Below the pieces are notes generated by a model, which was not told the origin of the DNA, did not search any database, and was given only the letters and a program-made list of their open reading frames with translations. DNA of 64,000 bases from Escherichia phage vB_EcoM_HZ_ZJUN4, in the sequence record PP216085; one strand, 5' to 3'. Positions 43,640 to 51,252 of this stretch are shown here, piece by piece. The position numbers were made by a program, and so were the translations under genes. Each line of letters opens with the position of its first letter. Position 1 is the first letter of the stretch.

Positions 43640-44017
43640 ATGTACAAAGTGTACGCGGATTATCAGGCTAATCCATCTAAAAAGCCAAGCTGTCAAATAG
43701 GATGGGCTCATGATACTTTGCTTGAAGCAGTAGATGCTGCTCAAAAATTGGGATATAAATATGTAGAGATTGTTCAACTTCCATCAGGAACAGTTATTAC
43801 TCTCGAAGAGTTTAATAATATTAAACCAAACTTTTTACTTTTTGCAGGTGATAATTATTATCCTCGTGGTGGATATGATGATTTGATTGCGTATGCTGAA
43901 ACAGAAGATGAATTACGCCAAATTATTGAAGACAATAAATCAAAACGATTTGGCGATAGTTTCGACTGGTGGCAAATCGTAAATGCCCATACACATACTA
44001 TTGTTGATAAAGGTTAA
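43640..44017 (+). CDS. hypothetical protein
   Basis: Start at ATG 43640 after the previous stop (track ORF 43607 overlaps the upstream gene); 125 aa. Confidence 0.5.
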   Translation: MYKVYADYQANPSKKPSCQIGWAHDTLLEAVDAAQKLGYKYVEIVQLPSGTVITLEEFNNIKPNFLLFAGDNYYPRGGYDDLIAYAETEDELRQIIEDNKSKRFGDSFDWWQIVNAHTHTIVDKG

Positions 44018-44307: not shown

Positions 44308-44404
44308 ATATGCTTTAAGAATTATTTGTTATTATTAACTCATATCGCACTGATTAATACCCTCTATCATCAAGGGTTCTTGCTTGAGAGCCTTTGTTAA
44401 TAAT

Positions 44405-44477
44405 TGGGAATTAGCCAAGTTGGTAAGGCACTGGATTTTGATTCCAGGATGCAAAGGTTCGAGTCCTTTATTCCCAG
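44405..44477 (+). tRNA. tRNA-Gln (anticodon UUG)
   Basis: Cloverleaf folded by hand: acceptor TGGGAAT/ATTCCCA, anticodon loop TTTTGAT, T-loop GGTTCGAGTCC. Confidence 0.8.
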
Positions 44478-44478
44478 C

Positions 44479-44565
44479 GCGAGAATGGTCAAATTGGTAA
44501 AGGCACAGCACTTAAAATGCTGCGGAATGATTTCCTTGTGGGTTCGAGTCCCACTTCTCGCACCA
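44479..44565 (+). tRNA. tRNA-Leu (anticodon UAA), type II, CCA encoded
   Basis: Acceptor GCGAGAA/TTCTCGC, anticodon loop CTTAAAA, long variable arm, GGTTCGAGTCC. Confidence 0.8.
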
Positions 44566-44570
44566 AATTT

Positions 44571-44644
<74 letters not shown>

Positions 44645-44654
44645 ATTTAATTTA

Positions 44655-44728
44655 CTCCGTGTAGCTCAGTTTGGTAGAGCGCCTGATTTGGGATCAGGAG
44701 GTCCAAGGTTCAAATCCTTGTATGGAGA
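44655..44728 (+). tRNA. tRNA-Pro (anticodon UGG), no encoded CCA
   Basis: Anticodon stem CCTGA/TCAGG, loop TTTGGGA; GGTTCAAATCC T-arm. Confidence 0.8.
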
Positions 44729-44730
44729 CT

Positions 44731-44820
44731 GGAGGCGTGGCAGAGTGGTTTAATGCACCGGTCTTGAAAACCGGCAGTCGCTCCGGCGACTCATAGGTTC
44801 AAATCCTATCGCCTCCGCCA
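44731..44820 (+). tRNA. tRNA-Ser (anticodon UGA), type II
   Basis: Acceptor GGAGGCG/CGCCTCC, anticodon stem CCGGT/ACCGG, loop CTTGAAA, long variable arm. Confidence 0.8.
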
Positions 44821-44825
44821 GTTTT

Positions 44826-44901
44826 GCTGATTTAGCTCAGTAGGTAGAGCAACTCACTTGTAATGAGAAGGTCGGCGGTTCGATTCCGTCAATCAGCACC
44901 A
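44826..44901 (+). tRNA. tRNA-Thr (anticodon UGU)
   Basis: Acceptor GCTGATT/AATCAGC, anticodon loop CTTGTAA, GGTTCGATTCC T-arm. Confidence 0.8.
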
Positions 44902-44902
44902 A

Positions 44903-44977
44903 GGCCCTGTAGCTGGAAGGTTCAAGCAAGCGACTCATAATCGCCAGATGGTGGTTCAATTCCACCCAGGGCCACCA
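44903..44977 (+). tRNA. tRNA with CAU anticodon (Ile by synteny with T4, reading AUA after modification; Met not excluded)
   Basis: Acceptor GGCCCTG/CAGGGCC, anticodon loop CTCATAA, GGTTCAATTCC T-arm. Confidence 0.7.
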
Positions 44978-44990
44978 AATTAAGAATTAA

Positions 44991-45077
44991 GGGGAGTTAT
45001 CCCGTAGAGGTAGCGGTGTGGACTGTAAATCCATTGTCATTGCGACTCGGGTGGTTCGACTCCATCACTCCCCACCA
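44991..45077 (+). tRNA. tRNA-Tyr-like (anticodon GUA), type II
   Basis: Acceptor GGGGAGT/ACTCCCC, anticodon stem GTGGA/TCCAT, loop CTGTAAA, long variable arm, T-arm GGTGG-TTCGACT-CCATC; D-arm pairing imperfect. Confidence 0.6.
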
Positions 45078-45081
45078 ATTT

Positions 45082-45156
45082 GGATGTGTAGCTCAATGGC
45101 AGAGCGATCGCCTGTTAAGCGATTGGTTATAGGTTCGAATCCTATCACGTCCGCCA
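45082..45156 (+). tRNA. tRNA-Asn (anticodon GUU)
   Basis: Acceptor GGATGTG/CACGTCC, D-stem GCTC/GAGC, anticodon stem ATCGC/GCGAT, loop CTGTTAA, GGTTCGAATCC T-arm. Confidence 0.7.
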
Positions 45157-45160
45157 AATC

Positions 45161-45236
45161 CGAGGCATAGCTCAGAAGGAAGAGCAAGGACCTTCTAAGT
45201 CCTAGGTCGTAGGTTCGATCCCTACTGCCTCGACCA
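45161..45236 (+). tRNA. tRNA-Arg (anticodon UCU)
   Basis: Acceptor CGAGGCA/TGCCTCG, D-stem GCTC/GAGC, anticodon stem AGGAC/GTCCT, loop CTTCTAA, GGTTCGATCCC T-arm. Confidence 0.8.
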
Positions 45237-45252: not shown

Positions 45253-45603
45253 ATGAAAGGTAATGTTTATTTAGTAGTTCATGATTTAACATTCTATTTT
45301 AATCACAATGACACTGTTATTTCTGAACGTGTAATTAATTTACTTTATCAGCATGCAGATTATGTTTATGTCGAAAACGAATACGGTCATTGGCAATTTC
45401 TCAAAAATCGTTCATTTGGTTTAGATGGTTACGAATACTTTGAACGTAAAGACCTTTTAGATAAAATTCCGTTATCTACACAATATCAAAATCATAAGTC
45501 TTTATATAAATGCCGTCCAATTCGAAATGCTGAATCTGCGTATGAAGTAATTGATTTATGGCGTAAACGTCGTGGACAGGTTGATGCTTTAAAAGAATAC
45601 TAA
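45253..45603 (+). CDS. hypothetical protein
   Basis: 116-aa ORF starting 17 nt after tRNA-Arg, with a GAGG RBS. Confidence 0.5.
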   Translation: MKGNVYLVVHDLTFYFNHNDTVISERVINLLYQHADYVYVENEYGHWQFLKNRSFGLDGYEYFERKDLLDKIPLSTQYQNHKSLYKCRPIRNAESAYEVIDLWRKRRGQVDALKEY

Positions 45604-45771
45604 GAAACCGGGTCGCTACCGGTAAGTCGTCGGACTGATGTTCCCTGGGTAAGGAATTGTGTTAATAAATCTTTATGATTTGTTGATGCCCTCTTACATC
45701 ACAGCAGAAACGGCGCACCGAATTATCGATTCGAGGAAATATCTTTGCCGTAAGCCGAGTAGCGTTTTTGA

Positions 45772-45863
45772 CGGAACGTTCGGATATGGTCGAGATATGG
45801 CCTTTTAAAAATATTAAGTAGCGTCAACTGCTTAATAACCGGGTTCGAATCCCGGCGTTTCGT
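45772..45863 (+). ncRNA. tRNA-like element (acceptor stem plus T-arm with divergent core); possible stable RNA or degenerate tRNA
   Basis: 7-bp acceptor-like helix CGGAACG/CGTTTCG flanking a T-arm CCGGG-TTCGAAT-CCCGG; ORF-free, GC-rich. Confidence 0.3.
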
Positions 45864-45914
45864 ACAAACACTTGCCTTAGCAGGTGGAACCCCGACAAGG
45901 TTGCCGCAAGGCTT

Positions 45915-45943
45915 AGCCCCGACCGAAAGGTTGGGGCTTTTTA
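45915..45943 (+). terminator. intrinsic terminator (repeat copy 1)
   Basis: 10-bp stem AGCCCCGACC/GGTTGGGGCT with GAAA loop, then TTTTT. Confidence 0.75.
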
Positions 45944-45944
45944 G

Positions 45945-45952
45945 TATAAATA
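45945..45952 (+). promoter_or_regulatory. late promoter box TATAAATA
   Basis: Exact TATAAATA 40 nt upstream of the 45992 ATG. Confidence 0.45.
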
Positions 45953-45991: not shown

Positions 45992-46465
45992 ATGAAATCA
46001 TATGCTCAATTTTTAAATGAAGTGGTGTTAAATGAAGCATCCGCTTCAGATGTTCGCGCTGTAGCAACTGCTGCTATTAAAGCTGGTAAATATTCTTATA
46101 AAGATGCTTCTGACGAATCCCGGTACAAGTTCTACGACGATATGAGAGCTGAAGGCTTTGTGGGTAACTATGTTACCACCGCCTGGAAAAGTCTGGTTGC
46201 TACTGGTGCGGCTTTCGAAAAACCTTCCGGTAAACCTGCTCCTAAAGCAGATCCTAAAGCTGCACAAGAAAAAAATATTGTTAAAGGAATTATCGCTAAA
46301 TATGAAGCTATACTTAAAGAGCTTTTAGTAATTAAAACCGAAGGCCAAAAATTAGCCCGTGCCTATAGTTTCAAAGATAATCCACATGCTCATGACCTAG
46401 AGTATGTTGAAGACATCCAAAAAATTATTAAAGACCGCATTTGGTCTGCTAAACAAATCAAATAA
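45992..46465 (+). CDS. candidate internal (capsid-targeted) protein, unrecognised family
   Basis: 157 aa; N-terminus MKSYAQFLNE matches the 10-residue CTS of T4 internal proteins; flanked by identical terminators. Confidence 0.6.
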   Translation: MKSYAQFLNEVVLNEASASDVRAVATAAIKAGKYSYKDASDESRYKFYDDMRAEGFVGNYVTTAWKSLVATGAAFEKPSGKPAPKADPKAAQEKNIVKGIIAKYEAILKELLVIKTEGQKLARAYSFKDNPHAHDLEYVEDIQKIIKDRIWSAKQIK

Positions 46466-46472
46466 CATTCTT

Positions 46473-46501
46473 AGCCCCGACCGAAAGGTTGGGGCTTTTT
46501 A
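46473..46501 (+). terminator. intrinsic terminator (repeat copy 2)
   Basis: Same hairpin as 45915-45943, then TTTTT. Confidence 0.75.
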
Positions 46502-46590: not shown

Positions 46591-47154
46591 ATGAAAACCT
46601 ATGCCGAATTTTTAACCGAAGCAGCAAAATTACCATCTGAAGCAGAACTTACTAAAGTATTCTTCCAATTGGACCCAAAAGACCGTGGCGATTTTCTTAA
46701 GTGGAAAGCTAAAGCTATTGAAATGTATAACATTGATAATAGTTCTTTTACGATGAGTCAAGAAAATAAATTCAATAAAGCATTTTTCAAAATTTCTAAG
46801 AAACTGGCATCTGGCGCTCAGGTTCCTAAATCTGCCTTAGCTACTCCTGAACGTGCGCCTGTTAAAATTTCTAAGAATATGTTCGACACTAAAAAATACG
46901 TTAATGCTTTGAATAAAGCTCTTGATGCATTGGATGATGCAAAGAAGGCAGCCCGTGATCTTCAAGACGTGTACATCGATTTTGATCGTAAAACTAAAGG
47001 TTCTATTTCAAATAGCGAACGCAATAGTGTAAGCGTTTATTCTGATAGCCTTGACGTTCTTGGCGATGCGTATACTGAAATTAAAAATCGTATTAACACC
47101 GCATCTAAACTAAAAGCTGCCGCAGAAGCTATAATAGCTAAACTAGGTAAATAA
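46591..47154 (+). CDS. candidate internal (capsid-targeted) protein, unrecognised family
   Basis: 187 aa; N-terminus MKTYAEFLTE matches the T4 CTS; Lys/Ala-rich body. Confidence 0.6.
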   Translation: MKTYAEFLTEAAKLPSEAELTKVFFQLDPKDRGDFLKWKAKAIEMYNIDNSSFTMSQENKFNKAFFKISKKLASGAQVPKSALATPERAPVKISKNMFDTKKYVNALNKALDALDDAKKAARDLQDVYIDFDRKTKGSISNSERNSVSVYSDSLDVLGDAYTEIKNRINTASKLKAAAEAIIAKLGK

Positions 47155-50934: not shown

Positions 50935-51252
50935 ATGAAAACGTTTAAAGAATTTATTGCAGAATCTGCCCAAGGACAACGTGTAGAAGGCGGTTATATC
51001 TGGATTGAACAAGTTGAGCCGCCAAGTCGCACTTCTACAGGTAAATGGAAAATCACTGTTGATGGTCCTGGTGGTAAACGTAGGACTCTTAAAGAAATTA
51101 ACGGGTACTATGAAGAAGCTCTTTCTGACGCGGGTACTTATATGATGCAAATCATGATTAAAAACCCAGAAAATCGTTTTGCGGCTAGAGTTTTCCGCCG
51201 TATTGGAAATAAGCTTTATGATGCATATTCTAAAAACTTCCCTAAAGAATAA
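50935..51252 (+). CDS. internal protein with CTS (IPII/IPIII-type)
   Basis: 105 aa; N-terminus MKTFKEFIAE; locus next to e as in T4. Confidence 0.7.
   Translation: MKTFKEFIAESAQGQRVEGGYIWIEQVEPPSRTSTGKWKITVDGPGGKRRTLKEINGYYEEALSDAGTYMMQIMIKNPENRFAARVFRRIGNKLYDAYSKNFPKE

Follow-up and report, generated by a model that had tools for sequence, protein, structure and literature searches.

Two T4-type small RNAs at the distal end of a phage tRNA operon, one of them a predicted tRNA-like four-way junction with kissing loops

The window analysed here is a stretch of 64,000 nucleotides (nt) of Escherichia phage vB_EcoM_HZ_ZJUN4 (sequence record PP216085; one strand, 5′ to 3′), which is a T4-like phage (Tequatrovirus). 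On sequence grounds, positions 45604–45950 are the distal end of its transfer RNA (tRNA) operon and hold two predicted non-coding RNAs, a 3′ trailer and a terminator. BLAST matched this region in 805 of 50,697 phage records, nearly all from Tequatrovirus phages of Escherichia, Shigella, Yersinia and Salmonella, with phage REP4 as the best match (100%). T4 matches at 95.4% identity over 99% of the length, under annotated features: in T4 (AF158101) and RB3 the matching stretch carries rnaD (‘small, stable RNA; species 2 RNA’) and rnaC (‘species 1 RNA’), directly downstream of tRNA-Arg, and the record of phage Kha5h annotates rnaC plus a terminator. Both genes are already known, and the sequences of the T4 species 1 and species 2 RNAs date from the 1970s; what is new is the structure and the wider distribution. 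We consider it very likely that the region comprises the orthologues of rnaD and rnaC, with the structures and the setting at the end of the tRNA operon that are described below.

Ten tRNA genes lie at 44405–45236 (Gln, Leu, Gly, Pro, Ser, Thr, Met(CAU), Tyr, Asn and Arg, from ARAGORN and Rfam), in an order typical for T4-like phages. The RNA features given here are all on the plus strand. The rnaD orthologue, about 120 nt in length, occupies 45600–45719, as mapped from the T4 feature by pairwise alignment (about 93% identity). The T4 annotation further places a 6-nt spacer, GAAUUA, at 45720–45725 and the 139-nt rnaC orthologue, a predicted four-arm tRNA-like RNA, at 45726–45864, with 136 of its 139 bases as in T4 (AF158101 70908–71046). 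The same A-rich spacer parts rnaC from the upstream tRNA in other genera. Folding gives a 3′ trailer at 45865–45914 with a 7-bp hairpin (45869–45886) and two small hairpins; this trailer is kept in Tequatrovirus and in phage IME08, which is without rnaC. The intrinsic terminator of the tRNA/rnaD/rnaC operon follows at 45915–45943. Its stem (45915–45938) has 10 pairs, 7 of them G-C, around a 4-nt GAAA loop and is followed by UUUUU, as expected of a rho-independent terminator, and a terminator is likewise annotated 3′ of rnaC in the regions of Kha5h and G2133 that align to the window. These are the same genes as in T4 in the same order (rnaD, 6-nt spacer, rnaC, trailer and terminator, 3′ of tRNA-Arg), so that rnaC again stands 3′ of rnaD and 5′ of the operon terminator. 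ZJUN4 differs from T4 in an open reading frame (ORF) of 116 amino acids inserted between tRNA-Arg and rnaD, and in carrying tRNA-Tyr and tRNA-Asn in the place of segB.

An earlier description of this region, made from its letters without database searches (the sequence-only reading), had called it ORF-free, GC-rich and structured, ending in a strong terminator, and these points hold. No ORF of 60 or more amino acids lies in 45604–45950; the largest are a 49-amino-acid ORF with a GTG start (45659–45808, plus strand), which is the sole ORF of at least 25 amino acids on that strand, and a 34-amino-acid ORF on the minus strand. The G+C content of 46.7% exceeds that of the whole window (35.9%) and of the two flanking ORFs (30.5% and 38.0%). 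The region as a whole folds with z = −5.3, and 0 of 100 shuffles were as good. The same reading had proposed a small stable RNA with a tRNA-like handle, comparable to the T4 species 1 and 2 RNAs near tRNA-Arg. This proposal could hardly have been closer, as the region is orthologous to precisely these two genes of T4. Its picture of a single RNA has to be given up in favour of two separate RNAs plus a trailer.

Homologues of rnaC were taken from GenBank phages, IMG/VR (by sequence pattern) and metagenomes. Alignment A3 comprises 24 distinct sequences aligned with MAFFT, blind to structure; covariance model R1 was built from A3; and alignment A7 comprises 27 homologues from at least nine Tevenvirinae lineages, fitted to R1. 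Comparison shows the predicted fold of the 139-nt rnaC to be a tRNA-like four-way junction. The minimum-free-energy fold has z = −4.1 (0 of 200 shuffles as good), R1 scores rnaC of the window at 175.9 bits, and RNAalifold on A3 returns the same fold, including the helix that joins the ends. On A3, 97.2% of cells in the model are paired and 22 pairs are changed on both sides, which none of 500 shuffles equalled, whereas sliding the 3′ partners by 1–3 columns as a control leaves only 38–46% paired. Once distant homologues are included (27 sequences), the number of pairs changed on both sides rises to 41.

The two ends of rnaC are predicted to form an acceptor-like helix, in which CGAUUCG (45727–45733) pairs around a tandem U·U with CGUUUCG (45856–45862); by comparison, the 3′ strand with the U and A that follow it, up to the T4-annotated 3′ end, spans 45856–45864. 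The five Watson–Crick pairs are intact in 24 of 24 sequences of A3, and the third pair is A-U in 12 and G-C in 12. In Jiaodavirus the tandem U·U is replaced by U-A and A-U (CGGUAUG with CAUACCG) and in phage Cronus the first U·U is replaced by G-C, which confirms that the terminal helix is continuous. The sequence-only reading had the 3′ strand of this helix right and the 5′ strand wrong: it had paired 45856–45862 with CGGAACG at 45772–45778, a helix that can be drawn in the single sequence and that finds no comparative support. Across the 27 sequences that helix is 79.9% paired with no compensatory change, 421 of 500 shuffles pair as well or better, and 16 of the 27 homologues break one of its pairs. 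On A3, the counterpart of the third terminal pair is a G-U in 12 sequences and a G-C in 2, and the other 10 have no pair there. The other helices named in that reading are conserved among relatives.

Between the strands of the terminal helix, long arm I (45734–45803) takes the position of the tRNA D arm. It starts from an AGG/CCU base and continues in irregular helices; 22 of 26 pairs of the arm are changed on both sides, and the shape is kept despite quite different sequence in VPA32, PEi20, Marfa and the Jiaodavirus phages. Hairpin II (45812–45837), in the position of the anticodon arm, has a 10-bp stem with 9 pairs changed on both sides and a loop of 6 nt, not 7, with no consistent anticodon. 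The T-arm (45839–45855) had been correctly picked out from the sequence alone: CCGGG (45839–45843), the loop UUCGAAU (45844–45850) and CCCGG (45851–45855) are stacked directly on the 3′ strand of the acceptor-like helix, and the middle pair of the stem is variously G-C, U-A, C-G and A-U among homologues. In most lineages the T-loop reads UUCRANU; some Kanagawavirus and Winklervirus phages have UGCAUGC or UGCAUUC instead. After the acceptor helix comes UACAA, here and in most lineages, or UCCAA in Marfavirus and Jiaodavirus, which amounts to an encoded UCCA end.

Comparison also shows that the two hexaloops of arm I and hairpin II can be predicted to pair with each other as a kissing helix. Loop I (UUGACG, 45768–45773) supplies the 5′ half and loop II (CGUCAA, 45822–45827) the 3′ half, and in all lineages loop I is the exact reverse complement of loop II. 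The combination is UUGACG/CGUCAA in 21 sequences (Tequatro-, Karam-, Kanagawa- and Winklervirus), UUGCAG/CUGCAA in 3 (Jiaodavirus), UUGGCG/CGCCAA in 2 (Marfavirus) and UUAGCG/CGCUAA in 1 (Cronus). The 6-bp helix is therefore 100% paired in the 27 sequences, with three of six pairs changed on both sides and compensating change in three lineages. Because the kissing helix is not part of R1, the model behind A7, this covariation of the loops is not circular. The basal part of the long arm measures about 20 bp and the return path through the apical stem, the kissing helix and hairpin II about 23 bp, with arm lengths that are near constant; sides of similar length, together with a sharp bend at the internal loops, would let the two arms close into a ring. 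By this geometric argument, the kissing helix probably closes arm I and hairpin II into a ring within one molecule.

The upstream RNA, rnaD, is shown by comparison to be a separate conserved RNA, for which we predict a 5′ hairpin and a long closed stem-loop. It aligns to T4 rnaD (AF158101 71053–71171) with three 1-nt insertions or deletions and lies directly 5′ of rnaC. Its fold is better than that of most shuffles (z = −2.2, 6 of 200 as good), and covariance model R2 scores it at 142.8 bits. The 5′ hairpin, ACCGG-GUCGCUA-CCGGU at 45607–45623, had been noticed from the sequence alone and is borne out by alignment A8, with 5 of 5 pairs changed on both sides and 100% of cells paired among 18 distinct homologues. 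In the body (45626–45718), GUCGUCG (45626–45632) pairs with CGGCG.AC (45711–45718) and encloses a variable central hairpin. The closing helix hardly varies, apart from three sequences in which a G-C pair is replaced by C-G, and the central hairpin has another sequence in loci L021 and L022 and in IME08, with pairing kept. Over the whole of rnaD, 93.4% of cells in A8 are paired, 20 pairs are changed on both sides and 0 of 500 shuffles reach the covariation score; the structure-free alignment A4 yields the same helices. We considered rnaD as a paralogue of rnaC and rejected this, as R1 has no match on rnaD.

The 5′ neighbourhood of rnaD differs from that in T4, in which rnaD starts right after a tRNA 3′ end. 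In ZJUN4, tRNA-Arg ends at 45236 and is followed by a 351-nt ORF (45253–45603), which encodes the 116-amino-acid product (phrog_3355, no Pfam match) and lies inside the operon. T4 and RB3 are without this ORF; Kha5h and several IMG/VR contigs have it in the same tRNA-Arg/ORF/rnaD arrangement. Its TAA stop codon (45601–45603) overlaps the T4-equivalent 5′ end of rnaD, so that in ZJUN4 rnaD must be excised from a precursor that resembles messenger RNA (mRNA).

For the wider distribution, extra loci were anchored on the lysozyme gene e and on the deoxynucleoside monophosphate kinase gene 1 (gp1), the latter giving 80 IMG/VR loci; the Trna.3 protein was rejected as an anchor, as the ORF of Erwinia phage Cronus is not clearly homologous to it. 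R1 matched rnaC in Moonvirus NM4.3 and Citrobacter phage Ursula (108–111 bits), in Marfavirus (Klebsiella phage Marfa, 92 bits), in Jiaodavirus (AM_K3 and 311F, 84–87 bits) and in Roskildevirus (Cronus, 51.6 bits, E about 1e-11). A pattern scan of a metagenome collection found 10 T4-like contigs with rnaC, and the same kind of scan found no copy in a bacterial genome collection. At E ≤ 0.01, R1 found no rnaC in the more distant T4-like loci (L072–L127 except L074 and L084), nor was rnaC found with R1 in the searched regions of Gaprivervirus TH55 and Serratia phage 92A1. In Dhakavirus IME08 (L007 1491–1700) rnaC is cleanly deleted, so that trailer and terminator come immediately after rnaD, which makes this phage a natural rnaC knockout with an otherwise intact operon.

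By BLAST, rnaD occurs only in Tequatrovirus and Dhakavirus loci. R2 adds a strong match in Gaprivervirus TH55 (145.8 bits) and weaker significant matches (24–45 bits) in further loci, some of them from known phages of Karamvirus, Marfavirus and Jiaodavirus, with a tRNA directly upstream wherever the neighbour is known, such as tRNA-Asn in VPA32. The occurrence of rnaC is independent of that of rnaD, which makes it probable that the two RNAs are distinct functional units.

The placement of rnaC follows the spacing of tRNA arrays. It starts 5–7 nt after a tRNA 3′ end in Karam-, Kanagawa-, Winkler-, Jiaoda- and Moonvirus and in Citrobacter phage Ursula, and where a tRNA lies 3′ of rnaC the gap is again a few nucleotides. 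Examples are Trp-rnaC-Gly in Karamvirus, Pro-rnaC in Jiaodavirus, Met-rnaC-Gly in Moonvirus and Trp-rnaC in Ursula; Tequatrovirus differs, with rnaC after rnaD. In Kosakonia phage Kc304 an unannotated tRNA (L013 1354–1425; Rfam 36 bits) lies directly 5′ of rnaC. Two Kanagawavirus loci (L004 1655–1790 and L012 1652–1790) have a second ORF-free stretch of about 135 nt 3′ of rnaC, parts of which look like a tRNA. It has a terminal helix of 8 bp, GUGGUGAAAUUUGGUAGACAC in the manner of a D arm, the hairpin CCUGG-UUGGUAC-CCAGG and, as a T-arm, GUAGG-UUCGAGC-CCUAU. We rejected this stretch as a second tRNA-like RNA, with a fold z of 0.28, no model match and no call from ARAGORN or Rfam.

The annotation of both RNAs has gaps. 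An Rfam scan, which had been suggested as a check on the sequence-only reading, matched ordinary tRNAs and nothing else in the window and five related loci at the gathering threshold, and no family matched rnaD or rnaC. A permissive scan of the region (E ≤ 10) gave only chance-level matches, among them tRNA-Sec, whose 17.3 bits fall short of the gathering score of 47. At rnaC in the window, neither ARAGORN nor the Rfam tRNA model (RF00005) makes a tRNA call, and ARAGORN finds no transfer-messenger RNA (tmRNA) there. In other records the 3′ 94–96 nt of rnaC are annotated as a tRNA, namely Met in vB_Ecl_id4496, Phe in KKP_3262 and Lys in G2133, and the annotated spans are L005 1554–1648, L014 1479–1574 and L015 1473–1566. 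All such annotations need the helix between 45772–45778 and 45856–45862 that comparison rejects. Still other records lay a ‘hypothetical protein’ coding sequence over rnaC or rnaD.

Set beside a canonical tRNA (RF00005), rnaC is alike in that its ends are predicted to form a 7-position acceptor helix (5 Watson–Crick pairs and 2 U·U) that stacks, with no base in between, on a T stem of 5 bp and its 7-nt loop UUCGAAU, and in the unpaired base after that helix, the CCA encoded in some lineages and the tRNA-like spacers within arrays. It is unlike a tRNA in its length of 139 nt, its tandem U·U and its arms, which kiss each other; in place of a D arm and a 7-nt anticodon loop it has an arm of about 70 nt and a 10-bp hairpin with a 6-nt loop. 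In two kinds of stable non-coding RNA, tmRNA with its tRNA-like domain and the bacterial Y-RNA-like YrlA RNAs, an acceptor/T-arm module provides tRNA-like processing and recognition, and the remainder of the molecule has another role. rnaC resembles them in carrying such a module on an otherwise different molecule. It differs from tmRNA in being without a tag reading frame, and from both in that its arms are closed by a kissing helix, which has no counterpart there; it also has no known Ro/Rsr context. Well-known kissing loops, such as those of ColE1 RNA I/RNA II and the HIV-1 dimerisation site, likewise pair two loops with full Watson–Crick complementarity over 6–7 nt, whereas rnaC has both loops in one molecule, beside a tRNA-like minihelix.

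A transcriptome study of 2022 classed T4 rnaC and rnaD as late RNAs, a classing checked by Northern blot, and described their function as unknown (PMC9697503). In a study of 2025, every line of a T4-like phage that had been evolved on the host strain ECOR34 came to carry a single SNP in the rnaD homologue (PMC12685909), which hints at a host-dependent role of rnaD. For the path to the mature RNAs, the minihelix and the placement within tRNA arrays point to release by the tRNA-processing machinery. Both RNAs would be co-transcribed with the tRNAs and cut out by host nucleases that process tRNAs, with the acceptor/T-arm minihelix of rnaC as a putative handle for ribonuclease P (RNase P) and 3′ trimming and, in some lineages, an encoded CCA end next to it. 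Such minihelix-guided processing would explain how rnaC accumulates as a stable RNA.

Once released, rnaC may act as an anticodon-less tRNA mimic that does not decode and instead binds or titrates a host or phage protein that recognises tRNAs; a tRNA-directed defence nuclease and a tRNA maturation or modification enzyme would be candidate targets. We offer such a mimic or decoy role as a guess, one that we hold to be possible. A broader form of the idea, which we regard as doubtful, would see in rnaC a class of phage tRNA mimics that is widespread, with about 1,000 Tevenvirinae genomes from at least nine lineages as carriers, and for the most part unannotated. Its minihelix and rigid kissing ring would neutralise a host protein recognising tRNAs, and rnaD would be a second, independent RNA with a host-specific role. 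The structural part of this broader reading, as predicted by comparison, is well supported.

Several other explanations have to be weighed. The sequence-only reading had left room for a decayed tRNA gene, that is, a pseudogene without a function of its own. A canonical T-arm and an acceptor-like helix are indeed present, tRNA labels appear in GenBank, ARAGORN also calls the vB_Ecl_id4496 copy (Met) and there is the weak tRNA-Sec match in Rfam. However, the anticodons called differ among phages, the calls depend on the helix rejected above, and ARAGORN and the Rfam tRNA model are silent in the window. Compensatory changes across genera, in at least nine lineages, maintain each helix, also the loop–loop helix and those of the arms without a tRNA counterpart, as expected under purifying selection, and the T4 RNA accumulates stably (PMC9697503). 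We therefore reject decay, which is very improbable on this evidence. Even less credible, to the point of being negligible, is that the region encodes small proteins. This would draw on the 49-amino-acid GTG ORF and on the ‘hypothetical protein’ coding sequences laid over the homologous region in several records, but that ORF crosses the boundary between rnaD and rnaC, three 1-nt insertions or deletions relative to T4 within 45640–45690 mean that its frame is not conserved, and substitutions track RNA pairing rather than codon positions.

Two further explanations accept the RNA structures and place their role elsewhere. The elements could act only in cis, as processing punctuation or 3′-end protection of the tRNA operon, with the released RNAs as by-products. 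This would suit the Tequatrovirus copies, which sit at the 3′ end of the operon just 5′ of the terminator, and tRNA-like processing signals are known elsewhere, as in the t-elements of plant mitochondria (PMC1920247). We nevertheless find it unlikely: in other genera rnaC occurs mid-array and rnaD after other tRNAs, so that 3′-end protection is not a general role; the exactly co-varying hexaloops, the 60-nt arm of conserved length and the invariant junction bases exceed what a cleavage signal needs; and IME08 has removed rnaC precisely while keeping the rest of the operon. Alternatively, rnaC, rnaD or both could be regulatory small RNAs that base-pair with host or phage mRNAs through single-stranded segments. 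Candidates for such segments would be the invariant unpaired junction UUUUAAAAAU of rnaC, the conserved UUCCCUG segment of rnaD and the rnaD loop GUCGCUA, which is invariant within Tequatrovirus-type sequences, and the literature has called rnaC and rnaD ‘small regulatory RNAs’, without evidence (PMC9697503). Yet the most conserved loops of rnaC are consumed by pairing with each other, and according to a review no trans-acting T4 small RNA has been functionally characterised (PMC3014915), which leaves a base-pairing role improbable in our view.

Some observations weigh against the identification of the region as rnaD and rnaC with the structures and roles given here. Alignments A7 and A8 were fitted to covariance models R1 and R2, so that pair counts taken from them lean towards the modelled stems. 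The kissing pairing may instead form in a dimer, or in the precursor only, which covariation does not tell apart from a ring within one molecule. Loss of the T-loop consensus in some Kanagawavirus and Winklervirus phages means that full tRNA mimicry is not strictly needed. The T4-annotated rnaC begins one base (U) before the helix and ends in ...GUA without CCA, ends that differ from a standard RNase P product or a CCA-ended substrate. What is said of RNA ends, processing enzymes and stability in ZJUN4 is extrapolated from T4. rnaC is missing from the searched regions of IME08, TH55 and 92A1 and is thus dispensable.

T4 mutants in which the tRNA region is deleted are viable on laboratory hosts. 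What the comparison adds to two long-known genes is a corrected structure backed by covariation, a kissing helix that can be broken and restored by design, and a wider distribution. Handles for further work are rnaC as a unit of tRNA arrays in many genera, the CCA in two lineages and the phages that naturally lack rnaC. The analysis also exposes an annotation problem, in that these RNAs have no Rfam match and appear in several GenBank genomes under the label of aberrant tRNAs or of hypothetical proteins.

Several features around the operon deserve mention. A late-promoter motif, TATAAATA, lies at 45945–45952, just beyond the terminator. Upstream, a MotA-box-like TATGCTTTA lies at 44309, about 95 nt 5′ of tRNA-Gln, and two more copies of TATAAATA lie at 43754 and 44059, inside the trna.3 and trna.2 ORFs. 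The motifs at 44309, 43754 and 44059 could serve as middle and late promoters of the operon, and operon promoters of the TATAAATA type would fit the classing of rnaC and rnaD as late RNAs. Within the array, tRNA-Tyr and tRNA-Asn (44991–45156) stand where T4 carries the homing endonuclease gene segB (L001 1250–1915), and tRNA-Tyr is only just above the Rfam tRNA threshold (30.2 bits against 29).

The operon terminator has a nearly exact duplicate about 560 bp downstream, at 46473–46501, and the two copies bracket one ORF (45992–46465). This ORF and the one at 46591–47154 are paralogues, both in phrog_2280, with the N termini MKSYAQFLNE and MKTYAEFLTE. These resemble the N termini of two ORFs just 3′ of the lysozyme gene, at 50935 (MKTFKEFIAE) and 51269 (MKTYQEFITE), a position that we take to be the site of the T4 internal-protein genes; the N-terminal motif resembles the T4 capsid-targeting sequence. 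The phrog_2280 ORFs may encode additional internal proteins, acquired through duplication or insertion.

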